The translations under genes were made by a program, and so were the position numbers. Below the pieces are notes generated by a model. The model was not told the DNA's origin. It worked only from the letters and a program-made list of their open reading frames with translations, and searched no databases. Shown here one piece after another: positions 8,407 to 26,408 of a stretch of DNA of 64,000 bases; position 1 is the stretch's first letter, and each line of letters begins with the position of its first letter. This stretch comes from Armatimonadota bacterium (lineage in GTDB: Bacteria > Armatimonadota > UBA5829 > DTLH01), in NCBI GenBank assembly GCA_039679675.1, contig JBDKUN010000030.1:743-64742 (forward strand), given 5' to 3'.

Positions 8407-11400
8407 TCAGAACAACCTCTGCACGCAGGTCGGCTGCTCCAGATTGGACGAGTTCTTCATCTTTTGAGTGTACGGCCCCAAGTCTGAATTATCCGCAGTA
8501 GGATCATTTCTCCAGATATCAGGGGTATACCACTCGATATAGTTCGGTGAGGAGTCTCGGTGGTAATCCACCTCGAACACCTCGCCGTTGAATTTGCTTC
8601 TGAACAGGTCGCCGATCTGACCAGCGTAGCTGTTCACGATAAGTATCCGGTTATTGGGCAGCATCTGCGCCCTGTACGGCATGAACGGTACCGGAACTAC
8701 AACATTATCCAGAGTAGACTCTTCTCCATTGACCGTGTTTACCTTGGTAATCTTCCTGGACAACGCAGCGTATTCTTTGGCAGTCAAATCCCAGATGATT
8801 TTGCCATCCGAGCCTTCCACCACATAGACCGCCGACGAATCGCAGATAAGCAGCCTCGGAAGAGTGGAATCCAAGGCATCGAAATACGTCGGGCCCGAAA
8901 GCGCGACCTTTGACCCATTACTGGCAGTCAACGTCGTAAGCTGGCTTACGATGACTGAATTGTCATCATAAGTCCACTGGAAGTCACCGGCACCCTCGCG
9001 GTATTTCATGGCGACTATTGCGCCGCCTAACTGCCCACCGCCTGTGCTTTCGGTCTTGACCAGATCATTCGCGGTTCCCAGTCCATAGTTCGAGAGCGAA
9101 GCCCAGACCTGGTTGATGTATATATTCGACCCAGACGATTTATCAACCCCGGAAATCAGCTTCACACTGTTATACGTGAACCGTTTGTCTCTGTCCGTCG
9201 TTCGGGATATCCAATTCAGCTGATGAATCGGCCTGCCGTTGCTGTCTGTCTTTACCGGGCCAAGTATTTGCCTGCTCGCATTTGCGTAATACCTGTCCAC
9301 TATATCAAGAATCCTGAAATTGCCGCTGTCAGCTACCATACAGTGGTTCAGATAATACCAATTACCGTCAATTTTCTCGAACTCGCTCCACATAATGGCA
9401 TCGCTTGGAGACTCAAGCTTTTTCGGCTCTCCGGAGCGAAGGAGACTCCTAAACGAATCATCGAACACTGTGCATGACCATGCTATCTGGCCGCCCCTGT
9501 CGATCCTGAGTATCCGGTCGTTGCCTGAATCGACAACAAGATAATCAGAGCCGTTATACTTCTGAGCGACAAGCGGCTTGTTCAGCGGCTGCGAGGTAGC
9601 TCCATAAATAGTCCCGGTTCCGGAGCCGCTGAGCGGCGCGTATTCTGAAACGGAATCACAGGACCATGAAACCTTGCCGTCCGTCCCGACTTCGAGTAAG
9701 CGGTGGTTGTCTGTCAGCAGGCTCAACTCGTTCTTGAAAAGATAAATCCCGCAGGGTGAAGGCACAACCAGCATACCGTTCCCGCCGGCAAGCGACGATC
9801 TGAAGCTCCCGGTCATGGTGTTGATATCCGGGTCGATGCGCTGTTTCATCTCCGCGATCTTGCCGGCATCGACTATCTTTGTCTTGGAGTCCTCCGGCGT
9901 CGCGTCTACTGGCACGGCGAATATGTAGCCGTCATCACAGGTAAAGTAAACATAATCGCCAAGGACTATTGGCGAACTCGATACACCGGAGCACGGAACA
10001 CCGTCATGGTCAGGCACAGCCATGGACCAAAGCAGGTTGTCCCAGCTGGAGAAATCTACCTGGTCCAGCGGAATAAGCTGGTGGTCGACGAATACCCATA
10101 CAGGAAGCGATGTCGAGAGCATGTTCGTCTGTATCTGCACACCACCCACTGTCAGACCCTGCAGCCTGATTCGGCTGAAATTACTGACCGTAATCGTTCC
10201 CGAATCGTAGTCTATCATATCGCTCGGCACTCTCGTTGCTGCATTGGCGGGTGTCAGAGTCGATGCGCCATCAGCGAATAGGAAATCCGGCTGCCAGACC
10301 GATACATCATACTTCCTGTCCGGCACAGATGGGTCCTTGAGTGACCTGTTCAGCCTGATCGTGAACTCCTGTCCAGCCTTGAGGCAGAGCAGATATCCTC
10401 TGGACATTGCCGAATTACCGGGATCATGAGTAGTAGCGGTGACAAACACTCTGTCGTTCGTTACCGCGGGAGTGCACTTAGCCTCAAGATTGGCGACCGG
10501 ATATATTATCTCCTTTTGCGGATCGGTCGGGTCCGGCAAGCTTGCCTGAACGCCCCAAAATCTGTCCGGCACTCCTGTCATGGAGTTTCTGGTCGCGTCA
10601 AGAAGCGACATCATACCCCCGGCTGTACTACTATCTGCAGCTGGATTAATGAAACTCCCTGCACCGTGCAGAAAATAATTAAAGCCGAGCTTCGCGGAGC
10701 GCGATGTACCGTCAAACCACATCGAGTAGATGGACGAGCGGCCCGAACCTGGAGTGTCTCCCCAATCGACTCCCATATAGAAGGTATCATTGGAACTTAT
10801 CGCTGGAGTCGATGCGGCTTCGAGCTGCTGAGTCAAAACGTCTCCCATGTTAGGCGGCAGTTCATAGTTTGGCGGTATAAAGTTCGTGACTTTGCTATAG
10901 TCTATCGCATAGGACATGTACACCTTGACATTAGGGCCCAGGACGCCGCTTGTTGTTCTGATCGTCACCTGTCCCACTGTACTCGAGATATCAGGCGTAT
11001 CCAGAGGGATAGAATTGCCTGCTCCGTCGACTGCCCACGCCTCTGGCGCCGGATATGACGATATTGGGAGCATGCCATAAGATGTTCTGAACTTGGCAGA
11101 CGTTGGATTGTATCTCAACATAGCCGGGCTGATGGGACTCAACTTGTCACTCGACACAAAGACCGGCAGCGAATAGATATAGTCGTTAGGCGAAGGAGAC
11201 ATTACTTTGGGCGGCCTCCCTATGACCGAGAGCATCTGCACTACGGCGCCGTTGGTCTGGTTCTTCACAAACGCAAGCGTCGGACCGGACTTGACCTTAA
11301 CAGGATTAGCTGAGTTCATGTTAAGAGGAAGCGACCAGTCAGAAGATTGATTGAACATGCTTTTTGAAGCTGCTTCCTTTAGCATCGGACTGTAGGCATA

Positions 11401-12861
11401 GATCTTCCCGTCGCGTCCGGCAACATAAATCCATCCGTTCTGCACGACCGGCGGCAGCAGCGCTCCGTCGCCATCACCAATCGAGCCTGTCCAAAGATCA
11501 TCTCGTAGAGTGTCAGAAGCTAAATTGGATGAGAGAGCACTAAACACATATACATGCCCATCCCTGCAGGTGACGAGCACGAAATCTCTCGGCTCAAGCG
11601 GATCAGCAGATGGATCCAGCATAGTTACTACTGTCGGGCTGGAAATCTCATCCGGGCAATTATGGCTCCAGATCACATCGCAGTCAGCATTTGCCCCATC
11701 GGGCACACCGTCATCCGCGACACCGTTCATGTCGATGTCGTTACCGGGGTTGGCATCCATCGCGTAGAGTGTATTACCTGATGAATAGAATATGATGCCT
11801 TTCCAGATAACAGGGCTGTTCTCTATGTCTCCCCTGCTGATCGCCTGGCTGCAGCGCCATTGTTTCAGAAGCGGTGCACCGAGAGTCTCGACGGAATAGC
11901 CTGTACGGCGATACTCTTTTCTGAATGTTGTATAGGAAGTCGCATACCCGACGACGTTATAAGCAAACCTTACATTAGCCGGAGAAGCGGCCATTATATT
12001 AATGTTGGATGAATTGAGATCCAGATGATCGGGAATAGGACTCGCCCCGTTAATTATCGGATTCTGGATATTTCCGCCTATGAAACCGGAAGTAAAAACC
12101 ACCCGGCCGCTGCCGTACTCTATTGCAGCGATTGTAGGTGGATCGCTGCTGATCCCGCTGCCGCTGGTGGAGACCAGAATCGGCGAAAGCGTGGTAGGGC
12201 TGGGAATCGACGGCCCCCAGCTTGATTCATACCCCGGATTTATGGCTTTGGAAGTCGAGCTGAGCGAAGCAAGCTCAAGCGGATTCAATCTATAAGGCGT
12301 CGTGACCAGCGGGTGAAGTGACTGCAGAAGCATCGGTGTTCCGCCGCCGCCCGATACGAAGTTTATACCAGGAAGGAAAAACTCATCCGCGCCGCTTGGG
12401 AACTTCATATTCCCGCCGTTATCCACCCAGAGACACCCGCCGCCGTCAACATACCTGCGGAGTTTGTCTCTATCGTCCATGGGGAATCTCACAGCCTCGT
12501 CCGCGCTCATATAGAGCACATCGAACTTGGCAAGGTTCTCGTATGTCGTATTCCCCAGCGAGACTTCCCAATATCCTGCATAGTTCTTATAGGCAGCATT
12601 ACCGCCTGCCAGCGGATTGACAAATGTCCAGCCATGCGGTTTGAGGTCGTCTCTCAGCCCCATTATATAGAAGATGTACGGAGCCATCGGCGCGGCTACA
12701 GCGTCTTTATTTATGCCGCTGTCTTTTCTCGGAAGCAGCACCCCCGCGTTAATAACATGCTGTTTATCGACATACGTCTGCGCGCCTGCGAACGCAATCT
12801 GCGCGAGCAGTATGGTTAGGACCAGTATAGCTATTGCTATATATGAAAATCTGCGTATCAT
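8407..12861 (-). CDS. 1484-aa secreted protein; putative PilY1-like pilus-associated adhesin (N-terminal GATase1/ThuA-like region, C-terminal beta-propeller-like repeats)
   Basis: Signal peptide MIRRFSYIAIAILVLTILLAQIAFAGA. N-terminal DVLYMSADEAVRFPMDDRDKLRRYVDGGGCLWVDNGG (ThuA/DUF4159-like). Repeated ...DG.IYA / ..W.. segments suggest PQQ-like propeller blades; sits immediately downstream of the pseudopilin genes in the same operon. Confidence 0.5.
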   Translation of the reverse strand: MIRRFSYIAIAILVLTILLAQIAFAGAQTYVDKQHVINAGVLLPRKDSGINKDAVAAPMAPYIFYIMGLRDDLKPHGWTFVNPLAGGNAAYKNYAGYWEVSLGNTTYENLAKFDVLYMSADEAVRFPMDDRDKLRRYVDGGGCLWVDNGGNMKFPSGADEFFLPGINFVSGGGGTPMLLQSLHPLVTTPYRLNPLELASLSSTSKAINPGYESSWGPSIPSPTTLSPILVSTSGSGISSDPPTIAAIEYGSGRVVFTSGFIGGNIQNPIINGASPIPDHLDLNSSNINIMAASPANVRFAYNVVGYATSYTTFRKEYRRTGYSVETLGAPLLKQWRCSQAISRGDIENSPVIWKGIIFYSSGNTLYAMDANPGNDIDMNGVADDGVPDGANADCDVIWSHNCPDEISSPTVVTMLDPSADPLEPRDFVLVTCRDGHVYVFSALSSNLASDTLRDDLWTGSIGDGDGALLPPVVQNGWIYVAGRDGKIYAYSPMLKEAASKSMFNQSSDWSLPLNMNSANPVKVKSGPTLAFVKNQTNGAVVQMLSVIGRPPKVMSPSPNDYIYSLPVFVSSDKLSPISPAMLRYNPTSAKFRTSYGMLPISSYPAPEAWAVDGAGNSIPLDTPDISSTVGQVTIRTTSGVLGPNVKVYMSYAIDYSKVTNFIPPNYELPPNMGDVLTQQLEAASTPAISSNDTFYMGVDWGDTPGSGRSSIYSMWFDGTSRSAKLGFNYFLHGAGSFINPAADSSTAGGMMSLLDATRNSMTGVPDRFWGVQASLPDPTDPQKEIIYPVANLEAKCTPAVTNDRVFVTATTHDPGNSAMSRGYLLCLKAGQEFTIRLNRSLKDPSVPDRKYDVSVWQPDFLFADGASTLTPANAATRVPSDMIDYDSGTITVSNFSRIRLQGLTVGGVQIQTNMLSTSLPVWVFVDHQLIPLDQVDFSSWDNLLWSMAVPDHDGVPCSGVSSSPIVLGDYVYFTCDDGYIFAVPVDATPEDSKTKIVDAGKIAEMKQRIDPDINTMTGSFRSSLAGGNGMLVVPSPCGIYLFKNELSLLTDNHRLLEVGTDGKVSWSCDSVSEYAPLSGSGTGTIYGATSQPLNKPLVAQKYNGSDYLVVDSGNDRILRIDRGGQIAWSCTVFDDSFRSLLRSGEPKKLESPSDAIMWSEFEKIDGNWYYLNHCMVADSGNFRILDIVDRYYANASRQILGPVKTDSNGRPIHQLNWISRTTDRDKRFTYNSVKLISGVDKSSGSNIYINQVWASLSNYGLGTANDLVKTESTGGGQLGGAIVAMKYREGAGDFQWTYDDNSVIVSQLTTLTASNGSKVALSGPTYFDALDSTLPRLLICDSSAVYVVEGSDGKIIWDLTAKEYAALSRKITKVNTVNGEESTLDNVVVPVPFMPYRAQMLPNNRILIVNSYAGQIGDLFRSKFNGEVFEVDYHRDSSPNYIEWYTPDIWRNDPTADNSDLGPYTQKMKNSSNLEQPTCVQRLF

Positions 12862-12918
12862 TTTGGCTACACACCTTCTTACAAGACTTCAACCCGGCAG
12901 GAATAGCTTTGCCGGCAG

Positions 12919-15639
12919 TTATGTAGGCTCTCCGTAATAGTAAAGCGATCTGCAGACAGGCAGACGCGGCGTAATAGGAAGCGGACGGCCATAATCGTCC
13001 TTACGTACCGGAGTCATCACCCCGCCGTTCTCATATACAGGCCAGCCGACCATCGAATCGTAAAGGAGCGTAAGGCCGTCTCCCTTATGCGCCGTTGCAA
13101 CACTGGACGTGCCGTATTTGTCAGGTATATTACTCCATTTTGAGTACCACTCGCTGACATCTCCGACGGATGCGGGCAGGTTTTCGGTGATCGCTCCATC
13201 TATGGTAATCTTGGTATCGAGCGGCTGCCCGAAAAGCGGCCATTTTTGGTTTACACCCCTGGGCCGGTATCCGTCCTTGCCGGTATCAGCGGCGTTCATG
13301 TTGAACCAGTTGCCTGGAATGATGAAAAACGACCGGTTCTGGGCATACATGACCGCTTCGATGCGAATATCCAGCGGCTGTATGGTGAATGCCGACAATA
13401 AGTAATTATTTCTGGAGTAAGATGACTGATCGAGTCCGATCTCGAAATAGTTCGGCCTTCCGATAGCGTTGTATAACCCGGCCTGATCGAACCCGTTCGC
13501 ACTATCGAATATTTTGTGCTCGAACAAGCTCGAAAGCCCTGTGCCCTCTAGGCAATATCGCGGGTCGCCGCAGCCATAGACCCAATCCGGCGGCAGATAC
13601 TGGCTATTCTGCCCAATATGGAGGAGTCCCTGTGTGCCGCTTCCGCGATTCAGCCACATATTGATGTAAGACGGGCCGTATTGTCCGGCATGCCTTACGA
13701 AAAGCATCGTATCGTTACCCATCTGCCAGCTTCCGGTCGGCGGGCCGAACGAGAACGACGAGAAAAACGTGGTCGAAGGTTCCGGCGTCACTATCAGGTG
13801 ATACGGCGGCTGCCCCGTTCCCGAATCAGACCCGATTGAAGTCGGTCCGAGCGAAGACAGGAGCGATACGAACTGAGTAGTATTTACGCAGACATACTGC
13901 TTGGCAAGAAGCGATACTGCGGAAGTCGGATCGACATTACCATCTGTATCGCGATATTTCAGCAAATTGCCTTCCACATAGATGATCCCGCCGGAGACCA
14001 CAGTAAGCTGCTTGCCCTGGGCCAGCATACCTTTGATACGTATATTCCCTTCGGCATAGATAACGCCGTTTCGGTCGATGGTTATATCCTGCGCTGTCTT
14101 GTTTCCGCTGTCATCCACATTGTAATGAGTGAACGTCTGTGTCCCCTGCGGATACGGAATAGTTATGGTAGAACCCTTGTCGTTCATCGGAACCCCGAAA
14201 GAGTTGTACCAAACAGACTTCTTGCCGTAAAGGGCGTCACTCCTCTTGCTCTTGATGTCTGTCCTTGTGATAGTGATATCCGGCTGGTTGTCCCCGTCCG
14301 TATCGTATGGGTTCAAGGTGATGACAACGCCTGGCGGGACGTAATAGGGTCCCTGCCAGTAGGCGGACATATCGTTGTTCGGCTTCATCCAGTCCGCTCT
14401 GGGGGTGTAACCTCCGAAAAGTGTCTCACTTTCCTGCTGAATATCATCGCTGTTATCGATATAAATGCCGCGGCCCCAACCATATCGGCCGCTGTTCACC
14501 CACCTTTGGGTTCCCCAGCCCTGCTGGAGCCATATACCCGAGTCGCGCGTAAGCGCTATGTATCTGGAGACCTTGGTAGGCGTGTCTTCATCGTCCAAAA
14601 GCGGCGGTTCCAGCCGTTTGATGCCTCTGGCGTTTTTGCCGGCATCCGGGCTATCAGAACCATCGCGGTAAAAACCATATGCTGTAGTAAACGGCTGAGT
14701 ATAATCCGACGGCTGGACAGGATAACTGTTCACCGTGCCTCCGTTGATTACCTCATAAAGAGTTACAGGGACCGGCTGGCTGCTATTGTTGACATCAACA
14801 TTTTCATGTTTGATCGTTCCGGAGACTTCCACCATATCGAGCGGCATGTAATCGGTATTTGAGCCGTCCTGATAACTGGTTCCCCTGAGCACCAGGTCTA
14901 TTCTATTGCCGTACCATTCAAGGTTGCCGTTTACCCTGATCGGCGCCCCACGGACGCCCTCCCCTGCTGTTGTTTCGTTGCCGTATTTCACATTGAACCC
15001 GGCAGCGCCGAGCGGAATATCCTCTGATTTTTTCTCCAGATTTGTCACGAACCTGAGATAGTCCGTAACGCCGATCGGTTTATATGCAGTGAGTTCCCGG
15101 CGAAGACGGACATTGCTGTCCCAGGTGGTAGGGTCGTCATTTTCGACGGTACCGATCCGGCCTATGGACTCGATCTTTATATATTTGGACATCGGGTCTT
15201 TCGGATCCGGATTGTAGCTGACACGAAGCAGGTACCGGCCATCTCCCATTCTGAAGGTAGTATACCCGCCGGTCGGGCCGGTGCTGCCATCTGTAGCTTC
15301 GGCAGCAGAATAAGGCCTTAGCCATTGAAAATCGGGGTTAAGTGTGTTATCGACTCCTGCAGTACTGGTCTTCGGCATATTGTCCGGTACAGGACGCCAA
15401 TCAGCGCCGTCATCGCTCGTCATGAGCATGTTATCCGCGTAATGTATGCCTGCTTCCGACAGGTATTGTGCCGTAATGACGTCTCTCGACCGTCCGGCGC
15501 GGCCCTGGTTCCGGGCGACGAGCACGACAAACACTACACTGATGAACGCGAGCAAAAGCATCACTATGATTGCGATCACCAGTGATTGCCCACGCTCGTT
15601 TCCAAGCTGCACCTTGCTTTTATTCATCGATTTCATCAT
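12919..15639 (-). CDS. Giant (906 aa) GspK/PilX-like minor pseudopilin lacking Glu+5
   Basis: N-terminus KVQLGNERG/QSLVIAIIVMLLLAFISVVFVVLV has a class-III signal-peptide-like leader plus hydrophobic helix, but Ile instead of Glu at +5 (a GspK hallmark); last pilin gene in the operon, as gspK is. Confidence 0.55.
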   Translation of the reverse strand: MMKSMNKSKVQLGNERGQSLVIAIIVMLLLAFISVVFVVLVARNQGRAGRSRDVITAQYLSEAGIHYADNMLMTSDDGADWRPVPDNMPKTSTAGVDNTLNPDFQWLRPYSAAEATDGSTGPTGGYTTFRMGDGRYLLRVSYNPDPKDPMSKYIKIESIGRIGTVENDDPTTWDSNVRLRRELTAYKPIGVTDYLRFVTNLEKKSEDIPLGAAGFNVKYGNETTAGEGVRGAPIRVNGNLEWYGNRIDLVLRGTSYQDGSNTDYMPLDMVEVSGTIKHENVDVNNSSQPVPVTLYEVINGGTVNSYPVQPSDYTQPFTTAYGFYRDGSDSPDAGKNARGIKRLEPPLLDDEDTPTKVSRYIALTRDSGIWLQQGWGTQRWVNSGRYGWGRGIYIDNSDDIQQESETLFGGYTPRADWMKPNNDMSAYWQGPYYVPPGVVITLNPYDTDGDNQPDITITRTDIKSKRSDALYGKKSVWYNSFGVPMNDKGSTITIPYPQGTQTFTHYNVDDSGNKTAQDITIDRNGVIYAEGNIRIKGMLAQGKQLTVVSGGIIYVEGNLLKYRDTDGNVDPTSAVSLLAKQYVCVNTTQFVSLLSSLGPTSIGSDSGTGQPPYHLIVTPEPSTTFFSSFSFGPPTGSWQMGNDTMLFVRHAGQYGPSYINMWLNRGSGTQGLLHIGQNSQYLPPDWVYGCGDPRYCLEGTGLSSLFEHKIFDSANGFDQAGLYNAIGRPNYFEIGLDQSSYSRNNYLLSAFTIQPLDIRIEAVMYAQNRSFFIIPGNWFNMNAADTGKDGYRPRGVNQKWPLFGQPLDTKITIDGAITENLPASVGDVSEWYSKWSNIPDKYGTSSVATAHKGDGLTLLYDSMVGWPVYENGGVMTPVRKDDYGRPLPITPRLPVCRSLYYYGEPT

Positions 15640-15653
15640 TGCTCGCCTTATCC

Positions 15654-17432: not shown

Positions 17433-17499
17433 TACCTCTTTGCCGGACGGTTATTATGCTTCCGACACGCTTATGCTTTCTCTCAAAGGTAATCCGGCA

Positions 17500-19158
17500 T
17501 TAATCCGAAGATTTTTTCGCAATAATCGAATCCAGATCGACATGCCGCCACTTTTCAGTCTCGCGCCAGATGACTCTCGCTCTCACGGAAACGCCGTTGA
17601 CCGAGAGAATCCTTGTCGGCTCGTTGCTGAGATCGATATAAGTGCTATCGATGCCGCCATATCGGAGCAACGCGTCGGATGTCTTATGGCACTCGCCAAG
17701 GACCCTTCTGGTCTGCCCGTTCAGAGCGTATTCGTAATCGACCGAGATCGTATGACAGGCATTACAGGCCGCGAGCCACAACCGCTGTGGGTTATTTGAT
17801 TCATCAATGGCATAACTCTTATAATCCAGCTGGCCGGAGTTGTAGTCTCTATCGTACTGTACATAGGCTTTTTGGAACTGGAGCGACCAATCGCCTTCTG
17901 CTTTGTAGTAGAACCGGATATTCCGCCCCGCCGGAGAAATAGTAACATTTGAATTTCCACCGGTCCCGAAAAGCTCAATATTCTCGGGTAGATCTACTGT
18001 ACCGTTCTCATAATCGACCCACTCGGAGTCAAACGCAATCTGCCGGCCTGACTCAAGGTCCACAGCGATCATATCGGGGACAAATTTGGTTCCATTCGGC
18101 CCCGGAACGCTAAATCGCGGGTTCAGTCCTGCATACGGTTCACCGTTCAACTCCATGGACACGCCGCTCTCTTTTATGTGGTTGAGCGTCATATGCACAC
18201 GGTAAGGCGCATTCGTAGGAACGCGCTTGTCCTCATGGATAATCTCCAGATCGAGAATATCGTAATCGATCCGCGCCTTGAGCGGACGGCCGAACTCCTG
18301 TTGGCTGTAGCCGATTGGGTTGAACGATATAATACCGAGCAACGGATCCACCATCATGTATTCATACGGATCAGATGACCAGCTTGTAACCTCTGAAAAC
18401 CCACGTGCCACTGTGTCGCTGTATCTGTCGATACCCGCGTACGAAGCACCGGATGCCATACGATCCTGGATCGCCGGACCGAAATTGATCCACCCCTCTG
18501 TCCCGCCCGGAACTTCTATTTTTATGTTCGTGACCGTCCGCAGGTGAGGATTACTGCTTCCGTTCGGCGTTTCCCACCAGGAACAGCTGAGATAATAAAT
18601 ATGTGTCTGGCTCGATTCGCGGAAGCATACCGACAGGTTATCATAATCTATGGCATACTGGGAGGACCTAAGGAACTTCCATGGCTCCGTGTTGTCATCG
18701 GAATCCATCACCCGTCGTGATAGATTGCTTCCCTTTATGACAATTCCACCGTGAGTTGTATCTATCGGGCTGAAAGAGAGCACATAAGTCGAACCGCTCA
18801 ATGGCCCAGTGGACCATCCGCCGAAGGGTATGCGAACAGTCTCGCCTATGATCCGGCGAAAAGAGGTAGCATTGTCATCACCGACCGGCGGTCCCGGAAA
18901 ACAATCGTTAAGGACAACACCTGATGAATCTATCGGCAGAACGCCATCCGGCAGGTTCTCGGAATTGTTTTTCCACCGCTCCATCTCGAACTGAGCAAGC
19001 CGACCGGCCAGAGTCACATGTTCGGCATGGCGGACAGACCGGAACCCAGGCGGGTACAGCCTGACCACAGTCAGAATTCCCACCACGAGCACGATCAATA
19101 CAACCAGCACCTCGACTAACGAGGTGCCCCGATTATCTTTAGCTCTCAAGCACACCAT
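17500..19158 (-). CDS. Large (about 552-559 aa) prepilin-type pseudopilin
   Basis: ORF 17500..19179; leader MVCLRAKDNRG/TSLVEVLVVLIVLVVGIL has Gly-1 and Glu+5. Start is either 19179 or the internal ATG at 19158, which gives a short leader. Confidence 0.7.
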   Translation of the reverse strand: MVCLRAKDNRGTSLVEVLVVLIVLVVGILTVVRLYPPGFRSVRHAEHVTLAGRLAQFEMERWKNNSENLPDGVLPIDSSGVVLNDCFPGPPVGDDNATSFRRIIGETVRIPFGGWSTGPLSGSTYVLSFSPIDTTHGGIVIKGSNLSRRVMDSDDNTEPWKFLRSSQYAIDYDNLSVCFRESSQTHIYYLSCSWWETPNGSSNPHLRTVTNIKIEVPGGTEGWINFGPAIQDRMASGASYAGIDRYSDTVARGFSEVTSWSSDPYEYMMVDPLLGIISFNPIGYSQQEFGRPLKARIDYDILDLEIIHEDKRVPTNAPYRVHMTLNHIKESGVSMELNGEPYAGLNPRFSVPGPNGTKFVPDMIAVDLESGRQIAFDSEWVDYENGTVDLPENIELFGTGGNSNVTISPAGRNIRFYYKAEGDWSLQFQKAYVQYDRDYNSGQLDYKSYAIDESNNPQRLWLAACNACHTISVDYEYALNGQTRRVLGECHKTSDALLRYGGIDSTYIDLSNEPTRILSVNGVSVRARVIWRETEKWRHVDLDSIIAKKSSD

Positions 19159-19301
19159 AATCAGCTCCCAGTTGAGCATTATCTGTTTTTAATACTCTAC
19201 GAGTAACGATTCACCCTTACACGCCACTTCGAAACAAATACGTCACTCTGCACAACTAATACATCACCCTAAACGAAGGGCCATCGCCCTGAACGAGGAG
19301 A

Positions 19302-19329
19302 CGTCACCCTGAACTTGATTCAGGGTCCA
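19302..19329. repeat. 28-bp hairpin repeat cgtcaccctgaacttgattcagggtcca, copy 1
   Basis: Exact match to 41099-41126; stem accctgaa/ttcagggt; preceded by degenerate tandem units tcaccctNaacg. Confidence 0.8.
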
Positions 19330-19431
19330 CCGGATTCCGAATCAAGTTCGGAATGGCGCTCTATTCATTCAGCATGACATTATATTCACAGTTTGTGAAC
19401 ACTCACATCAACATATGTTGACTATCACCGG

Positions 19432-20190
19432 CTATTTATTAGGCCCAATCCTCCAGCGGGATCCGGGATCGGAGGTAGTATTCGAGCCTTCTATGTTAGA
19501 AATCGGAACCATATCGGAATGTCCGTCCAAAAACAACACCGGGACCATCGACTTGGCGTCGCCTTGGCGCTGATGGTAGCTGCACCAGGTCACGACAGTA
19601 TCATCTGACGGGTTGCGGAACCTGAGCTGCCTTTTGTAGTCATAAGCATCATCTGAAGTAGTCGATGCGGCTTTGTATTGGCCTACATTATTCGTGGTAT
19701 CAGCCCACTTGGTGGTATACCGGACATCGTACGGGTAATTTGCCGTAGCAGTATCGTTTACTACTCCCGGTGTGTATATATCATAACTGCTGTATGCATA
19801 GTACCAGTAATCCTTGCCGTCATCTTTGGTCACTTTAACTGTCGCAGTGGTTGATGACGTTACTGCTAGCGGGCAGTGGAAGCCTTTGATAGACTTGACA
19901 TACTCCGGGTACAGACCACCGCCGGTCCTGGCACGCTCCAGCGGAACAGGTGTATTACCCTGAAACTCGACGTAACCAGCGAGTGAGTCCGGATACCGCC
20001 TGTTGTCCTGCTGGAACATCTTGATCGCTATAGCCAGGTTATGCAGGTTAGTCATACACTGAACCCGTCTAGCATTGTTCTTCACGGACCCCATTACCGG
20101 GAAAATAATCGCCGAAAGTATCGCAATGATCGCGATTACTGTGAGGAGTTCCACCAGGCTGAATCCCTGCTTACCGCGCATCGTTTTCAT
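19432..20190 (-). CDS. Prepilin-type pilin with C-terminal H-X9-DG-type (DUF1559-like) domain
   Basis: MKTMRGKQG/FSLVELLTVIAIIAIL prepilin leader with Glu+5; C-terminal TWCSYHQ...VLFLDGHSD motif; TNLHNLAIAIKMFQQD region typical of PVC-type DUF1559 pilins. Confidence 0.8.
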   Translation of the reverse strand: MKTMRGKQGFSLVELLTVIAIIAILSAIIFPVMGSVKNNARRVQCMTNLHNLAIAIKMFQQDNRRYPDSLAGYVEFQGNTPVPLERARTGGGLYPEYVKSIKGFHCPLAVTSSTTATVKVTKDDGKDYWYYAYSSYDIYTPGVVNDTATANYPYDVRYTTKWADTTNNVGQYKAASTTSDDAYDYKRQLRFRNPSDDTVVTWCSYHQRQGDAKSMVPVLFLDGHSDMVPISNIEGSNTTSDPGSRWRIGPNK

Positions 20191-20302
20191 ATCTCATCCC
20201 TCCAAGGCAGTTGATACCTGCTCTCCTTGTATATTATTGACTAACAGTTAAATTCGAATGTTCCTTTATATGCTATATAAACAGGCGAAATCGCATCGTT
20301 TA

Positions 20303-20935
20303 TCATTTCGGACGCGTATTCCACCTGCTTCCGACTGATCCATTATTGCCTTCGACGGCTGCAGCTGAGCATATGTCTGAATGACCATCATAAAACAACA
20401 CCGGCAGGCCGCCCTCTCTGTGATAGCTGCACCAAGTGATTACAGTGTTATCTTCAGCTTTTTTTGCACCGGGAAGCGATGGGTTGTAACGCAGCGCATC
20501 TGTGCCGAGCTTCACAACACCATCCGATTCTTTCGGCGTATATACATCGTAGCTGTCGTAAGCGTAGTATCTGCGGACTTTACCGCCTACCAGTATCTCC
20601 GCCACAGTATCTGTTCGTTCTACAGGTGATAACCGGCAGTGGAACCCTTTCATTACCTTAATGTACTCAGGATAGAGTCCTCTGCTCTTTCTAAAATGAA
20701 CAGCCTTCCCTGCGTCCATCTCTACATAACCCGCGAGACTTTCAGGAAACCCTTTATAGTCCTGTTCATACATCTTAAATCCAATAGCTATGTTGTGCAG
20801 GTTCGTCATACATGTGACTTTTGGACTAATAGGATCAACATACGCAAACATAGGAACCAGCACTGCGATAACAACTACAACCGCGAGTATTGCAACTATG
20901 GCCCCAAAAACGCTCCAGCCTCTACTGTTACGCAT
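20303..20935 (-). CDS. H-X9-DG-type pilin paralog with degenerate prepilin leader
   Basis: Paralog of 19432..20190 (shared CMTNLHNIAIGFKMYEQD, SLAGYVE, TWCSYHREGGLPVLFYDGHSD), but N-terminus MRNSRGWSVFGAIVAILAVVVV lacks Glu+5 and the F/T/L/I/E pattern. Confidence 0.7.
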   Translation of the reverse strand: MRNSRGWSVFGAIVAILAVVVVIAVLVPMFAYVDPISPKVTCMTNLHNIAIGFKMYEQDYKGFPESLAGYVEMDAGKAVHFRKSRGLYPEYIKVMKGFHCRLSPVERTDTVAEILVGGKVRRYYAYDSYDVYTPKESDGVVKLGTDALRYNPSLPGAKKAEDNTVITWCSYHREGGLPVLFYDGHSDICSAAAVEGNNGSVGSRWNTRPK

Positions 20936-20979
20936 AACACAGACCCCTCCCGGTTCTTTGCCGCTGCCTTAAATAAGCT

Positions 20980-21849
20980 CTAGAACCCGTGATGAAGAAA
21001 CTGCATATACCAATTGATTAACTGATTTCCAAAGAACATCGTGATCAGCACGCCACTGACCATCATCGGGCCGAACGGCAGCGTATTGCTGTTTTCCTGC
21101 CCTTTATGGGCGATCATCCACCCGATCCCTATAATACTGCCTGCAAAAACGGCGATGAAAAACGACAATAACGCCAATCCCAGCCCCAAACCGCTCGTAA
21201 CAGCCCCGCAAAAGACTGCACCGATCGCACCGGCAAGTTTGACATCACCGCCGCCCATCGCCTCCTTTTTGAAAGCTCTTGTGCCAAGCTCCGCTATAGC
21301 TAAAAATATGCCGCCGCATATAAACAATCCGGCGACAGACCACAACATCGGAATCTCAATACCGGTAAACGGTACTGGAATATGGAGGAGGGTATGCCCC
21401 TCCTCATGCATCACTAATCCGTAAATGTCCCGAACTACCCCTATGCTCATTCCGAACCACACCGAAAGCTGGTCTGGAATGACCCAGTGCTCCAGGTCGA
21501 TAAAAAACACCGCTATCAGCGCAGCCGTAAAAAGCGCGTAGAGAAAGAAATTGACCGCAAAACCATATTCGGCGAAAAGCGCCACGGATATAAGCCCTGT
21601 AATCAACTCTACAGTAAAATACCGCCAGCTTATCGGCTCGCCGCAGTAGCGGCATTTACATCTAAGCATCAAAAAGCTCAAAAGCGGAATATTATCTATC
21701 CATCTAAGCTTTTTGTTGCATTTTGGGCAGTGCGACGGCGGATAGATGATCGACTGCTCTATCGGCATCCGGTAGATACAGACGTTCAAAAAGCTGCCGA
21801 TTACAGCGCCATAAATAAATACAACAAGCGCCCAAAACCAAAACTGCAC
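20980..21849 (-). CDS. pilD: Prepilin peptidase (A24 family, PilD/GspO-like)
   Basis: 289 aa polytopic protein with N-terminal CPKCNKKL...CKCRYCGEPIS tetracysteine zinc-finger typical of PilD and multiple TM helices. Confidence 0.85.
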   Translation of the reverse strand: MQFWFWALVVFIYGAVIGSFLNVCIYRMPIEQSIIYPPSHCPKCNKKLRWIDNIPLLSFLMLRCKCRYCGEPISWRYFTVELITGLISVALFAEYGFAVNFFLYALFTAALIAVFFIDLEHWVIPDQLSVWFGMSIGVVRDIYGLVMHEEGHTLLHIPVPFTGIEIPMLWSVAGLFICGGIFLAIAELGTRAFKKEAMGGGDVKLAGAIGAVFCGAVTSGLGLGLALLSFFIAVFAGSIIGIGWMIAHKGQENSNTLPFGPMMVSGVLITMFFGNQLINWYMQFLHHGF

Positions 21850-21854
21850 TAAGA

Positions 21855-23078
21855 CTACTCCGATGCGCCAGAAAGATTCTGAATTACCGCAATAAGCGGC
21901 AGGAAGATCGATATAACAATAAACCCTACCGCTCCTCCGAGGAATACGATCATAACAGGCTCAATAGTCGCCGTAAGACTGTCAAGCGCGGCATCAACCT
22001 CAGCCTCATAGAACTCAGCGACTTTATGAAGCATCGGATCGAGTGCACCGGACTCCTCACCGATGGAGATCATCTGGACAACCATCGGAGGGAACAGTTT
22101 ACTTCTCTGCAACGGGTCTCCGATCCGGTCACCTTCCCGAATCCTTGCCCTTGCTTCAAGTATGGCATCGCTTACAATCTCATTCGAGACCGTTCCTGCA
22201 ACCGTTTCAAGTGCCTGCAGGATCGGGACTCCTGAAGCAAGCAGTGTCCCAAGCGTTCTCGAGAACCTGGCAAGAACGATTTTGTGATTCAGTTTTCCAA
22301 AGACCGGAGCCTTCAGTTTAAACCTGTCATAAACACGCCTGCCGGCCTTCGACTTGATAAACAGCTTGAAAGCGATGACAAACACCACCAGGCATACGAT
22401 CATGATATACCACTTGCTGGTCAGAAAGTGGCTGAATCCCATCAGCAATCTTGTAGGCGCAGGAAACTCTTTGACACCGAGGTCATCGAACAGGGACATA
22501 AACTTAGGCAGGATGAACGTAACCAGGCCGATTACGATACCGACAGCCACGATCATAACAATGATCGGATAAGTCATCGCTGACTTGACCTTTCGCCGTA
22601 GTTCCATGTCGCCTTCAAGGAACTGCGAAAGCCTCTGTAAGCTTTCCTCAAGAACACCGCCGACTTCGCCTGCCTTGATCAGACCGATAAACAGGTTCGA
22701 GAACACGTTCGGGTACTTGCTCAGCGCTCTTGAGAGTGTCTGGCCTGCCTCTACTTCCATCTGCATGTCGTTGATGATCCTTTTGAGCTTCGGGCTTACC
22801 GTCTGCTCCGCAAGGACGGACAGGCACCTGACCATCGACACACCGGCGTCAATCATAGTGGAAAACTGACGGCAAAAGACCGAAAGGTCGCTCAGCTTTA
22901 TCCTTCCGAACCCTCCGCCAGCATTCTTCTTCTTAGCGCCTTTGGTTTCTTTGATGTCGACAACCGTAAATCCCTGCTCGGTCAGCCTCCGCCTCAGCAA
23001 TCCTTCACTTTCGGCCTCGACTGTTCCGGGGATCTGGTTTCCGCTTGCATCACGTACTGTGTATGCAAAATTTGGCAT
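21855..23078 (-). CDS. pilC: Type IV pilus / T2SS inner-membrane platform protein (PilC/GspF family)
   Basis: 407 aa with duplicated GspF-like cytoplasmic domains and 3 TM segments; N-terminus MPNFAYTVRDASGNQIPGTVEAESEGLLRRRLTEQGFTVVDI is a typical PilC opening. Confidence 0.85.
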   Translation of the reverse strand: MPNFAYTVRDASGNQIPGTVEAESEGLLRRRLTEQGFTVVDIKETKGAKKKNAGGGFGRIKLSDLSVFCRQFSTMIDAGVSMVRCLSVLAEQTVSPKLKRIINDMQMEVEAGQTLSRALSKYPNVFSNLFIGLIKAGEVGGVLEESLQRLSQFLEGDMELRRKVKSAMTYPIIVMIVAVGIVIGLVTFILPKFMSLFDDLGVKEFPAPTRLLMGFSHFLTSKWYIMIVCLVVFVIAFKLFIKSKAGRRVYDRFKLKAPVFGKLNHKIVLARFSRTLGTLLASGVPILQALETVAGTVSNEIVSDAILEARARIREGDRIGDPLQRSKLFPPMVVQMISIGEESGALDPMLHKVAEFYEAEVDAALDSLTATIEPVMIVFLGGAVGFIVISIFLPLIAVIQNLSGASE

Positions 23079-23201
23079 ATGCCTTCACTCCTATCCTGAT
23101 TCGTATTCCTAATCCGTAGTTCGAAGGTATTTATAAAGTATGAACTAAGGCCGGCCTTACAGTCTGCAAGAACACACGGACTGGACTACGAAACTTTTGT
23201 A

Positions 23202-24398
23202 CTATCTCCTGTTCATGCCGTTCGGTACGTCCGTCGACATCGGCGCAGCGATCATTTTCTTGAGTTCTTCAGGGTTCATAGCACGCGTCATAGCATCATC
23301 ATAAGTAATGGCGCCTCTATGATAGAGTTCCCTCAAGTGCTGGTCCATCGTCTGCATACCAACATTGGCGCTCGTCTGGATAATAGACGTAATCTGGTGG
23401 CTCTTCGCCTCTCGGATAAGGTTCCTGATAGCCGGAGTAGCTATCATAATCTCCATCGCGCAGACTCGTCCGGGCATACCGGCCCTCGGCATGAGCTGCT
23501 GGCAGAGGACGGCTTCCAAACTGTTCGAAAGCATCAATCGTATCTGGTCCTGCTGGTTTGCAGGGAATGAATCTACGATCCTGTCGACTGTCGATGCGGC
23601 ACTGTTCGTGTGCAGCGTGGCGAAAACAAGGTGTCCTGTTTCTGCAGCGCGGATTGCGTTCGACATCGTCTCAAGGTCTCTCATCTCACCGACCAGTATC
23701 ACGTCAGGATCTTCTCGAAGGGCAGCCCTTAGGGCATTTGCGAACTCATGTGTATCCTGGCCGACTTCGCGCTGGTTGATAATACAATATTTATGCTGAT
23801 GCAGATATTCAACCGGGTCCTCGATTGTGATGATATGGCAGCTTCGCTCATTATTCATCTGGTTGATCATAGCCGCAAGCGATGTAGACTTGCCGCTTCC
23901 CGTCGGCCCGGTAACAATGATCATACCTCTTGGCCTTCGGGTAAGTTCCTCCAGAATCGGAGGAAGCCCCAGGTCTTGTATGGTCGGAATCTTCGTCGGG
24001 ATCAACCTGAAAGCCCCTGCGACAGCACCTTTATCACGATACACATTGACACGGAACCGTGCTACCTTACCAAGAGCATATGAAAGGTCAAGCTCAAGAT
24101 TCTCTTCAAACCGCTGTATCTGCTCATCCGAGAGAATATCGTACATAATTCTCTGGCATTGGATGGTCTCGACCCTTGTATAGTTAAGCGGTAAAAGCTG
24201 ACCGTCGACGCGGATAATCGGCGGTACACCCACACAGAGATGCAGGTCCGATGCGCCTTTCTCTACTACAATTCTGAGAAGATCATCGACGTGTGTATCG
24301 CCTATCTCAATCGGCTTGTTCGCGTTTTGAGTCTGAGTTATCTGCGCAGCCTGCTCCGGCGGAATCTGCTGTGCATGGTTTGTTATCTGCTGTTCCAA
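23202..24398 (-). CDS. pilT: PilT-type retraction ATPase (twitching motility protein family)
   Basis: Walker A GPTGSGKSTSLAAMI; PilT/PilU-size core with an N-terminal extension of about 35 aa; ...DPIE...RE... motifs. Confidence 0.8.
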   Translation of the reverse strand: MEQQITNHAQQIPPEQAAQITQTQNANKPIEIGDTHVDDLLRIVVEKGASDLHLCVGVPPIIRVDGQLLPLNYTRVETIQCQRIMYDILSDEQIQRFEENLELDLSYALGKVARFRVNVYRDKGAVAGAFRLIPTKIPTIQDLGLPPILEELTRRPRGMIIVTGPTGSGKSTSLAAMINQMNNERSCHIITIEDPVEYLHQHKYCIINQREVGQDTHEFANALRAALREDPDVILVGEMRDLETMSNAIRAAETGHLVFATLHTNSAASTVDRIVDSFPANQQDQIRLMLSNSLEAVLCQQLMPRAGMPGRVCAMEIMIATPAIRNLIREAKSHQITSIIQTSANVGMQTMDQHLRELYHRGAITYDDAMTRAMNPEELKKMIAAPMSTDVPNGMNRR

Positions 24399-24479
24399 TC
24401 CCTATTGCCTCCGACTAAAGAAAGTTCAGAGTTCAAAGTGCAGTGTGCACAGTTCATGCACCCGCACCAAATACCTCTA

Positions 24480-26246
24480 TTAATGTCCCGCGGTGAAGAC
24501 TACTCTCATAATCTCATCCGGGGTCGTCAAACCTTCAAGAACCTTTGTGAGTCCGTCTTCGCGAAGCTCATGCATACCGTTTGCCTTGGCAGCTTCGCGG
24601 ACATCGGCGAGCGGAGCGCGCCTTACGACAAGCTCGGCGATCTCATCGTTCATTCTCATCAATTCGTAAAGGCCGACCCGGCCTTTGTAACCTGTCTGCC
24701 TGCATACTTCGCATCCAGTGCCCCGGTAAAGCGTAACCGGCTGCTCTGGATCATCGGTCTTCATCCCAAACCGTCTGAGTTCCTTTGCCGCCACGGTGTA
24801 GCTGGTCTTGCAGTTCTGGCAAACTCTTCTTGCAAGCCTCTGTGCAAGGACTCCGATAATCGTCGCCGAAATAAGGAACGGTTCGACACCCATATCCACA
24901 AGCCTGATAACGCACGAAGGAGCATCGTTCGTGTGAAGCGTCGAAAGAAGGAGGTGTCCTGTAAGCGCCGCTTCGACAGCGACCTCAGCCGTCTCAAGGT
25001 CTCGGATTTCACCGACCATGATGATATCAGGGTCCTGTCTCAGGAAACATCTCAGCGCGCTGGAGAACGTAAGTCCTGCTTTTCTGTTTACATGCACCTG
25101 GGATATTCCGCTTAGCTGGTACTCGACAGGGTCTTCGACCGTAATAATGTTCTTATCGACCGTATTGATCTTGTGCAGAACGGAATACTGTGTAGTCGTC
25201 TTTCCGCTACCCGTTGGCCCCGTCGAAAGGAACATACCGTTCGGCTGCTGTGTGATCTCATCGATCTGCGCCTGCGTCTCCGGTGTAAACCCGAGTTTGT
25301 TCAAGCCGAGGAGAACGCTCGATTTATCGAGGATTCTCATAACGATCTTTTCGCCGTGAATGGTAGGAAGACAGGATACACGGAGGTCATAGTCTTTATT
25401 TTCCCAGCGGATCGGGATACGCCCATCCTGAGGGATTCGCCGCTCGGCGATGTTCATATCGGCCATAATCTTGAGGCGCGAGATAAGCGGAGCCTGGATA
25501 TATTTAGGAAGCGACATAACTTCGTGCAAAACGCCGTCAATTCTATAACGGACGCGCATGCCGCGCCGGTCCGGCTCTACGTGAATATCACTAGCCGCGT
25601 CGCGGATCGCCTGCTGGATGATAGTGTGGGCAATACGGATGATCGGCGCTTCTTCAGCGGCCTGGCGGACCTGGTTTTCATCGTCCTCCACCACCTCTTC
25701 GTGCGCGCCGTAAGTAGCAATCGCTTCACTGATCGAGGACATTCCCGTGCTACCGCTGCCGCCGTTAGTCGGGGCGTTCACTGCGGGAACCGCAGCGCCG
25801 TTATCCGATGATGTCTTATAAATGCGGCGGATTGCGTCATCTACATCGTCTTCGGTCGCAAGGACTGTCATTATTTGAGCGCCGCCCACTACAAGCCTGA
25901 CATCCTGAAGAGCCATCGGGTTACCGGGGTCGGACATGGCGACGATCATCTTCCCGCCGACTTTGCCTATGGCAATGAGTTTATGCTGTTTAGAGATACG
26001 TTCGGGGATCGAGGTGGCGATCGACTCATCAATCTTCTGCGTGGAAAGATCGACGAACTGCATTCCTGAGACTTCGGCCTTGGCCTTTATGACTTCCTTA
26101 TCAGTGGCAAAGCCCAGGTCGATTATGATCCGACCGATATCACCAGGCGCGCTGCGCTGTGCATCCCGCGCCTGAGCAAGCTCCTCCGCCGTGATTATTT
26201 TCTTAGCGACGAGCACCTCGCCCAGATCTTTTCTCGCCATTACCAT
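24480..26246 (-). CDS. pilB: PilB/GspE-type assembly ATPase
   Basis: 588 aa; N-terminal T2SSE_N/GSPII-like domain (LGEVLVAKKIITAEELAQA); Walker A GPTGSGKTTT; CxxC...CxxC tetracysteine motif (CQNCK...CEVC). Confidence 0.85.
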   Translation of the reverse strand: MVMARKDLGEVLVAKKIITAEELAQARDAQRSAPGDIGRIIIDLGFATDKEVIKAKAEVSGMQFVDLSTQKIDESIATSIPERISKQHKLIAIGKVGGKMIVAMSDPGNPMALQDVRLVVGGAQIMTVLATEDDVDDAIRRIYKTSSDNGAAVPAVNAPTNGGSGSTGMSSISEAIATYGAHEEVVEDDENQVRQAAEEAPIIRIAHTIIQQAIRDAASDIHVEPDRRGMRVRYRIDGVLHEVMSLPKYIQAPLISRLKIMADMNIAERRIPQDGRIPIRWENKDYDLRVSCLPTIHGEKIVMRILDKSSVLLGLNKLGFTPETQAQIDEITQQPNGMFLSTGPTGSGKTTTQYSVLHKINTVDKNIITVEDPVEYQLSGISQVHVNRKAGLTFSSALRCFLRQDPDIIMVGEIRDLETAEVAVEAALTGHLLLSTLHTNDAPSCVIRLVDMGVEPFLISATIIGVLAQRLARRVCQNCKTSYTVAAKELRRFGMKTDDPEQPVTLYRGTGCEVCRQTGYKGRVGLYELMRMNDEIAELVVRRAPLADVREAAKANGMHELREDGLTKVLEGLTTPDEIMRVVFTAGH

Positions 26247-26388
26247 TGCTTAAGCACCTCTCCATACCCCTCGAAGATAAAATTCAACGGAACAAAGAAA
26301 CATCCCTTTGCTCCATGCGTAGCCGGGGCGAAACCTTCGATATGATTATCCACAGTAATCCGCGGTAAATGTGAGCCATTAATTATAG

Positions 26389-26397
26389 ATTATAGCA
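26389..26397 (-). promoter_or_regulatory. Candidate extended -10 element (TGCTATAAT) upstream of pilB
   Basis: Reverse complement of attatagca at 26389-26397 reads TGCTATAAT, about 140 nt upstream of the pilB ATG in the aroE-pilB spacer; no clear -35. Confidence 0.3.
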
Positions 26398-26408
26398 TTA
26401 AACAGGCT

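Follow-up and report, generated by a model that had tools for sequence, protein, structure and literature searches.

A probable retractile type IVa-like pilus operon of Armatimonadota with three oversized minor pilins

What a type IV pilus does is determined by its minor pilins, which prime assembly and make up the tip, the part in contact with DNA, surfaces or hosts. The 64-kb stretch of DNA analyzed here (hereafter the window; positions 743 to 64,742 of contig JBDKUN010000030.1 from an uncultured Armatimonadota bacterium) contains ten open reading frames (ORFs) that tile positions 8407-26246 of the minus strand as one co-directional block, with gaps of 5 to 252 nucleotides. They encode PilB, PilT, PilC, PilD, two DUF1559-type proteins, three pilin-type proteins of 559, 592 and 906 residues, and a secreted protein of 1484 residues. 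The block probably serves as core operon for a retractile type IVa-like pilus in Armatimonadota (diderm Terrabacteria), with an oversized PilV-PilW-PilX priming tip.

In type IVa minor-pilin operons, pilY1 sits right after pilX, as in fimU-pilV-pilW-pilX-pilY1-pilE. The tip of a type II secretion system (T2SS) is formed by GspI-GspJ-GspK (PDB 3CI0; XcpVWX, 5VTM). In Thermus thermophilus, the gene order is pilA1-pilA2-pilA3-comZ-pilA4. ComZ (PDB 6QVI) is a GspK-like pilin with an inserted β-solenoid and without Glu5, argued to sit at the tip with the neighboring PilA2 (PMC6561018). Cyanobacterial PilX proteins all carry a β-solenoid, proposed to be a tip plug that replaces PilY1, and the EPS/HpsA subtype is greatly enlarged (bioRxiv 10.64898/2026.02.12.705559). 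More generally, modular pilins are an established concept: a survey by Raynaud et al. (2021) counted more than 1,200 proteins, with an extreme of 860 residues, and such pilins are thought to be exposed at the tip (PMC8179133).

At the cytoplasmic and inner-membrane level, the Armatimonadota locus encodes a complete type IV pilus engine, retraction ATPase included. The extension ATPase PilB (588 residues; 24480..26246) has the Walker A motif GPTGSGKTTT and an N-terminal MshEN-type domain (Pfam: T2SSE, 455 bits; MshEN, 54.9 bits). It scores 634 bits with the type_IV_pilB model TIGR02538 (trusted cut-off 675.65) and 598 with the GspE model, both just under the trusted cut-offs. Its residues 8-56 match an MshE-related domain that binds cyclic di-GMP (NCBIfam; 38.4 bits against a cut-off of 38), which hints that pilus extension could be under cyclic di-GMP control. 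The retraction ATPase PilT (398 residues from a TTG start; 23202..24398) matches the PilT/PilU family from residue 37 (TIGR01420, 512 bits against a cut-off of 319; T2SSE, 179 bits) and has the Walker A motif GPTGSGKSTS. The inner-membrane platform protein PilC (407 residues; 21855..23078) matches T2SSF in two stretches (223 bits, Pfam); in NCBIfam it scores higher with the Thermus-type PilC model (441 bits) than with the Myxococcus-type PilC (422) or GspF (391) models. The prepilin peptidase/N-methyltransferase PilD (289 residues; 20980..21849) matches A24_N_bact (125 bits) and Peptidase_A24 (36.8 bits), and its translation includes the cysteine cluster CPKC...CKCRYC. With a pilin that carries a class III signal, described below, these proteins make up the type IVa set: PilB-type ATPase, PilT-family ATPase, PilC, PilD and pilin. 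The ten ORFs, their coordinates and their motifs are as the initial annotation gave them, and hidden Markov model (HMM) scans and synteny agree with its description of one type IV filament operon with pilT inside.

Three pilin-type proteins are indeed two to three times the usual size, as first proposed. The 592-residue protein (15654..17432; 590 residues in the NCBI call) has the leader RAG/FTLIELLVV, where the slash precedes residue +1, and matches the pilin N_methyl domain at 26.7 bits (cut-off 21.2), as do 70 of its 75 homologues. Its AlphaFold2 model matches the fold of GspJ/XcpW/EpsJ and of Thermus TTHA1219. It thus combines a class III signal and Glu5 with a GspJ-like pilin fold, which places it in the GspJ/PilW class. 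Residues 108-140 contain MHCNNPxH...CPxC (C112, H117, C135, C138), nearly invariant across the 75 homologues, a motif that looks like a zinc ribbon. We know of no zinc ribbon in a GspJ/PilW-class pilin among characterized minor pilins.

The 906-residue protein (12919..15639) has the leader ERG/QSLVIAIIV. Its family conserves the N-terminus RGQ[ST]L[IV][IV]A and lacks Glu5, as GspK, PilX and ComZ do. In the AlphaFold2 model, the fold matches GspK/XcpX: a hydrophobic α1 helix without Glu5 leads into a GspK-like pilin fold into which a further domain is inserted, as expected of the GspK/PilX class. The whole protein is predicted to comprise a pilin module, a β-solenoid, and a jelly roll resembling a carbohydrate-binding module (CBM). 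The predicted fold is thus that of a pilin, despite the lack of a match to the N_methyl HMM. It is also ComZ-like, in that a pilin module is joined to a large β-solenoid of the ice-binding-protein type. The models of the 592- and 906-residue proteins are of high confidence, and each opens with a pilin-typical helix of 54-57 residues.

The 559-residue protein (17500..19179; leader NRG/TSLVEVLVV) matches N_methyl at 15.4 bits, under the cut-off. The domain is matched by 21 of 28 orthologues, and Gly-1 and Glu5 are kept across the phylum. Residues 17-76 score 31.9 bits with the PilV model TIGR02523, under its cut-off of 52.2. An hhalign comparison of the 559- and 592-residue families found the α1 helix alone in common.

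The initial annotation had compared these proteins with GspI, GspJ and GspK. Predicted structure supports this for the 592- and 906-residue proteins; for the 559-residue protein, the assignment draws on the PilV-like N-terminus and gene position. An N_methyl domain in the large proteins, likewise anticipated, was found directly in one, through orthologues in the second, and in the 906-residue protein not at all. Pfam scans of the three families found nothing beyond N_methyl, and the T2SSK, T2SSJ and T2SSI HMMs matched none of the giant pilins. In profile searches of PDB sequences, the 559- and 592-residue families matched by the N-terminal helix alone, and the 906-residue family had no match. 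By the definition of modular pilins, an N-terminal pilin motif joined to a further module that is not peculiar to pilus biology, the 592-residue protein and the 559-residue family qualify through N_methyl plus about 400-480 extra residues, and the 906-residue protein through its predicted structure.

The arrangement is widespread. A scan of one genome per species yielded 79 related loci, in which gene order was determined by tblastn and ORF calling. Fimbriimonadia, Chthonomonadia, Armatimonas and Abditibacteriota are represented, as are many unnamed lineages. The order pilB-pilT-pilC-pilD-pilin-I-J-K-Y (Y being the 1484-residue position) and the large sizes are found in most loci that are long enough: about 245-300 residues at the pilin position, 540-726 at I, 555-800 at J, 850-1100 at K, and about 1300-1800 at Y. 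Because this nine-gene order and these sizes recur in independent loci, the assignment as a type IV pilus operon is far beyond chance. Of the loci that reach far enough upstream, the great majority have pilT within the operon. A few loci do not have pilB, pilT and pilC adjacent, yet their pilin-I-J-K-Y block is intact.

The 906-residue protein itself has a 100% identical counterpart, annotated as hypothetical, in an Armatimonadota metagenome-assembled genome (MAG). It has more than 200 full-length relatives at 38-74% identity, none with a Pfam domain; those with names are nearly all from Armatimonadota or Abditibacteriota. A profile of the family, run against 1.84 billion cluster representatives, found 871 members (50%-identity representatives) at E ≤ 1e-3, of which 472 remain at E ≤ 1e-30. 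The initial annotation had suggested an origin in the PVC group (Planctomycetes, Verrucomicrobia, Chlamydiae). That origin is ruled out by the identity to the Armatimonadota protein and by the taxa of the related loci, nearly all of which are Armatimonadota or Abditibacteriota or carry no taxon. Two loci bear outside-phylum labels in their MAG records, Propionibacteriaceae for L016 (DIVW01000042.1) and Sedimentisphaerales for L031 (DATKWR010000502.1); these are probably binning or labelling errors. Judged from operon order and sizes that recur across the related loci, the pilus system is a phylum-level feature of Armatimonadota, neither a PVC trait nor a one-off.

The candidate major pilin is the DUF1559-type protein of 252 residues (19432..20190), whose gene is preceded by a GGAGGG ribosome-binding site. 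Its leader, GKQG/FSLVELL, is a canonical class III signal; the G/xxxxE motif occurs in only three ORFs of the whole window. The protein matches N_methyl (30.1 bits) and DUF1559 (25.6 bits, cut-off 23.3), both above cut-off. Its N-terminus best matches GspG (41.5 bits; TIGR02532 of NCBIfam, 29.9 bits), and weakly matches HpsB; that of the 592-residue protein weakly matches the HpsC pseudopilin model. Between pilD and the 559-residue orthologue, 42 of 49 loci have exactly one DUF1559-type pilin gene, and six have two. The pilin orthologues keep Gly-1 and Glu5, apart from a minority with Ala at -1.

The second such gene of the window (20303..20935) encodes a protein of 210 residues, 37% identical to the 252-residue pilin. 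It matches DUF1559 (27.2 bits, cut-off 23.3) without an N_methyl match, and its degenerate leader, RG/WSVFG, has lost Phe+1 and Glu5. In the six loci with two genes, the second pilin copy has an intact leader. On the sequence comparison, the 210-residue gene is a lineage-specific tandem duplicate, judged so because it is missing from the closest relative, L001.

Between the 252-residue pilin gene and the first giant pilin gene lies the longest gap, 252 nucleotides at 19180..19431. Its predicted RNA fold has a free energy of -95.6 kcal/mol, with a z-score of -4.7 against shuffled sequences. Tandem Repeats Finder reports 2.7 copies of a 20-nucleotide period with the core CAGGGTGAYG. The region is partly conserved in L001, and it may act as an attenuator or other regulatory element by which the proportion of pilin to minor pilins is set.

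Several pilin and 559-residue orthologues have Ala in place of the normally invariant Gly at -1 (RA/FTMVE, RA/FTLIE), in loci L036, L042, L043, L045, L052-L054 and L070-L072. The substitution suggests that PilD specificity may be relaxed in some Armatimonadota lineages.

The last gene of the block (8407..12861) encodes the 1484-residue protein, which has a Sec-type signal peptide (AFA/GAQ; orthologous N-termini are similar), then DUF4159 (31.1 bits, cut-off 25.9), and then PQQ-type and NHL-type β-propeller repeats (PQQ_2, 26.6 bits; Pfam). Among 28 orthologues, DUF4159 is matched by 24, PQQ_2 by 13, and NHL by five; GenBank names are "DUF4159 domain-containing" or "BamB family". A profile of the family found only propeller blades among PDB sequences (designed PQQ-like propellers, BamB, quinoprotein dehydrogenases, NHL repeats), and neither PilY1 nor PilC. 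The Neisseria_PilC/PilY1 domain (PF05567/IPR008707) matched none of the 28 orthologues. Membership of the PilY1 family is ruled out by these Pfam scans and the PDB profile search. The description "PilY1-like" from the initial annotation holds for position after a PilX-class gene and for Sec export as a non-pilin, and fails for family. What the two proteins have in common is that position, that mode of export, and an N-terminal domain followed by β-propeller repeats. A literature search on DUF4159 function found nothing.

The 1484-residue protein might instead be an unrelated secreted enzyme or envelope protein that shares the transcription unit and acts outside the fiber. This is the best-surviving alternative to part of the proposal, though an improbable one. 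Its Sec signal is ordinary, it lacks a PilY1 domain, DUF4159 and PQQ-like and NHL propellers are common in non-pilus proteins, and in the window housekeeping genes follow directly. Against this stands its constant company: a match lies directly 3' of the 906-residue orthologue in nearly every locus that extends past that gene, and it stays there where pilB, pilT and pilC are not adjacent (L039, L041, L065, L067, L068, L077). The slot is also that of pilY1, after pilX.

In 33 loci a further very large gene lies on the same strand directly downstream of the 1484-residue orthologue. Its product, of at least 1,500-2,000 residues and often cut by the end of the locus, has a signal peptide and propeller-like segments. 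These loci include L024, L027, L030, L032, L039-L041, L043-L046, L053, L056, L060, L062-L064, L068, L069 and L073-L079. The window lacks such a gene; a radical-SAM gene, hemW-like by eye, stands in its place. In most Armatimonadota, the extra gene may encode an additional part of the tip apparatus.

How does the locus compare with described systems? Among the closest parallels is Thermus. According to the model, the 906-residue protein shares with ComZ the GspK-like module and the β-solenoid resembling ice-binding proteins; both genes follow other minor-pilin genes, and both products lack Glu5. The resemblance extends to TTHA1219 (PDB 5G23), the type IV-like pilin that matches the 592-residue fold, and to PilC, which scores best with the Thermus-type model. 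The differences are of size and content. The 906-residue protein is about 350 residues longer than ComZ, adds the CBM-like jelly roll, and has no detectable sequence similarity to it. The proteins in the PilV and PilW positions have 559 and 592 residues, whereas the PilA2 and PilA3 constructs end at residues 193 and 233. Moreover, the Armatimonadota locus adds the propeller protein, and its minor-pilin genes share an operon with pilB, pilT, pilC and pilD.

Cyanobacteria and Armatimonadota both belong to Terrabacteria. In the cyanobacterial FimT-PilW-PilV-PilX sets (PilX_Com; PilX_EPS/HpsA), as in the predicted structure here, PilX is a pilin fold with an inserted bulky β-solenoid, and PilX_EPS is likewise greatly enlarged with extra domains of unknown kind. 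The cyanobacterial systems generally lack a PilY1-type partner, whereas nearly every locus here has a giant non-pilin partner, and only three minor pilins and one pilin are found.

Compared with the T2SS tip, the I-J-K order is the same, and K lacks Glu5 and has an inserted domain. However, the proteins here are two to three times larger, pilT is present, and the predicted insert is a β-solenoid plus jelly roll, whereas that of GspK is α-helical. The fimU-pilV-pilW-pilX-pilY1-pilE operon has the same order of PilV-, PilW- and PilX-like proteins followed by a large Sec-secreted β-propeller non-pilin, and by analogy assembly priming and tip adhesion would be expected here. FimU and PilE equivalents are not recognizable in the Armatimonadota locus, its pilins are much larger, and the N-terminal domain of the partner is DUF4159 rather than the vWA domain of P. 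aeruginosa PilY1 (PMC8179133). Finally, modular pilins such as Streptococcus sanguinis PilB and PilC, and CofB, carry extra modules with recognizable domain signatures, whereas those here match no Pfam domain. All three tip pilins of this one system are modular, and at 906 residues the largest exceeds the survey's extreme of 860.

The locus therefore belongs to the Terrabacteria-type design of Thermus and cyanobacteria, and is not a new kind of machine. The initial annotation called its architecture unlike the textbook, which is half right: the parallels to Thermus pilA1-3/comZ and to cyanobacterial β-solenoid PilX are both already described. What is new is the joint enlargement of three tip pilins, the Cys/His motif in the PilW class, the predicted jelly roll in the PilX class, the giant non-PilY1 partner, and the presence of the whole set in one operon with pilB, pilT, pilC and pilD across the phylum. 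A literature search found no description of this locus or of Armatimonadota minor pilins.

Gene content, leaders, the predicted folds of two giant pilins and the phylum-wide synteny are direct results. From these, and from the established GspI-J-K and PilV-W-X-Y1 priming complexes and ComZ, we infer by analogy a tip complex, the role of the 1484-residue protein, the major pilin, and the ligand. PilD would process the 252-, 559- and 592-residue proteins at their class III leaders, and possibly also the 906-residue protein, which lacks Glu5. On the PilC platform, the three giant pilins would then join through their N-terminal α1 helices in a priming complex of the GspI-J-K or PilV-W-X type, with the 559-residue protein in the PilV/GspI place, the 592-residue protein in that of GspJ/PilW, and the 906-residue protein, as GspK/PilX/ComZ, at the apex. 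PilB would polymerize the DUF1559-type pilin of about 250 residues beneath this complex, and PilT would retract the fiber.

The extra modules would thereby be displayed at the fiber tip as a ligand-binding or adhesive head: the β-solenoid and CBM-like jelly roll of the 906-residue protein, the β domain of the 592-residue protein with its putative zinc ribbon, and the remaining 480 or so residues of the 559-residue protein. The 1484-residue protein, with DUF4159 and β-propeller, probably docks on this head, in the role that PilY1 has in Proteobacteria. Ligand binding is suggested by the predicted β-solenoid and jelly roll of the 906-residue protein. Among ligands, polysaccharide or surface adhesion is favored, and DNA capture is possible as a second choice.

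Secretin and alignment proteins of the PilMNO type would have their genes in another part of the genome. As the initial annotation had noted, the window has neither a secretin nor pilM, pilN, pilO or pilP, judged from Pfam scans of its remaining large ORFs. In Fimbriimonas ginsengisoli, of the same phylum, fimbriae have been seen, and PilQ, PilM and four PulD-type genes are reported from elsewhere in that genome (PMC4072686); a locus without secretin is therefore no peculiarity. Armatimonadetes also appear in a list of diderm Terrabacteria phyla that have an OmpM homologue.

Several points weigh against the proposed pilus and its tip. Only three minor pilins are recognizable where four are usual, and no separate GspH/FimU-like gene was seen at the locus; the 252-residue protein could therefore be the FimU/GspH-equivalent linker rather than the major pilin. 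The 559-residue protein is placed in the PilV/GspI position by about 60 N-terminal residues and gene order. The 906-residue protein and 21 members of its family match nothing in Pfam or NCBIfam, including N_methyl, PilX_N and T2SSK. Its family profile retrieves no PDB sequence at E ≤ 1, and thus shows no sequence similarity to ComZ, and the ComZ match was not reproduced by Foldseek. The 1484-residue protein is not a PilY1 homologue by any of the tests; it is linked to the pilus, as a probable functional analogue of PilY1, through synteny. At about 3,500 residues, the tip complex may not fit through a normal secretin channel. Last, some generic Armatimonadetes systems were reassigned to the T2SS class by Denise et al. 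(PMC6668835).

The bulk of the head leads to a bolder proposal, which we consider rather unlikely. The giant pilins, crowned by the DUF4159/propeller protein, might form an undescribed tip megacomplex: not a simple adhesin but a "grappling" organelle that binds polysaccharide or acts enzymatically. If so, with the further secreted protein of 1,500-2,000 residues in most lineages, the complex would exceed 400 kDa by a wide margin. A conventional secretin would have no room for a head of this bulk; the outer-membrane conduit would have to be unusually wide, or the head would have to be assembled outside the cell.

Somewhat less likely still is a competence pilus, in which the 906-residue protein would be a ComZ-like DNA receptor at the tip, with its PilV-like neighbor, and PilT retraction would bring in DNA. 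The order of PilV-, PilW- and ComZ-like genes parallels Thermus pilA2-pilA3-comZ, and the architecture is shared with cyanobacterial PilX_Com proteins (bioRxiv 10.64898/2026.02.12.705559). ComZ binds DNA and, like the 906-residue protein, lacks Glu5 (PMC6561018). However, besides the missing sequence and Foldseek support for ComZ, the extra jelly roll, the much larger proteins in the PilV and PilW positions, and the co-conserved propeller protein, which has no parallel in competence loci, all speak against it. Pfam scans saw neither comEA nor comEC in the window.

The proposed retractile pilus must also be set against a T2SS-like apparatus, a doubtful reading to which we give the least weight among these. 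A short periplasmic pseudopilus with a giant GspI-J-K-type cap would push folded exoproteins through a secretin; the substrates might be the 1484-residue protein and many DUF1559-type proteins. The GspG score of the pilin, the 598 bits of PilB with GspE, and the resemblance of the two modelled minor pilins to pseudopilins GspJ and GspK all fit, as does the reassignment noted above; F. ginsengisoli has 21 T2SS genes and 79 PulG-like genes (PMC4072686). Yet Thermus type IV minor pilins also resemble T2SS pseudopilins, hence the resemblance does not discriminate. A PilT-family ATPase above its trusted cut-off is encoded within the operon in a large majority of the loci that reach far enough upstream, and PilC scores higher with type IV pilus PilC models than with GspF. 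The T2SS combination, GspC/L/M and the secretin GspD in the cluster without PilT, was not found: Pfam scans of the window ORFs revealed neither GspC/L/M nor a secretin there. A mobile element or foreign island was dropped as an explanation, as tRNA and Rfam scans of the window gave no matches and base composition is even across the block.

The flanks of the block are housekeeping genes, with the hemW-like gene downstream and alaS a few genes upstream. Upstream of pilB is a shikimate dehydrogenase-like gene, named aroE by eye. Just past its stop, within 26287-26400 of the minus strand, is an extended -10-like sequence, TGCTATAAT, and the likely pilB leader contains a hairpin of 13 bp followed by a T-rich tail (26316-26287); each is no more than a consensus match. 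In a scan for promoters and terminators, promoter-like sites did not exceed their frequency in shuffled sequence, and no terminator-like site could be assigned to a gene boundary.

Together, these results indicate that a poorly studied phylum as a whole has enlarged its three putative tip pilins, all at once, and has combined them with a giant propeller protein that has no relation to PilY1. The locus defines at least four sizeable protein families without full-length descriptions, and yields structural hypotheses for them. Taken with ComZ and cyanobacterial PilX, it suggests that a β-solenoid PilX is an old trait of diderm Terrabacteria and no Thermus oddity. It also raises a mechanical question, namely how so large a tip would pass through the outer membrane, which cultured Fimbriimonas, Chthonomonas and Armatimonas make experimentally accessible.

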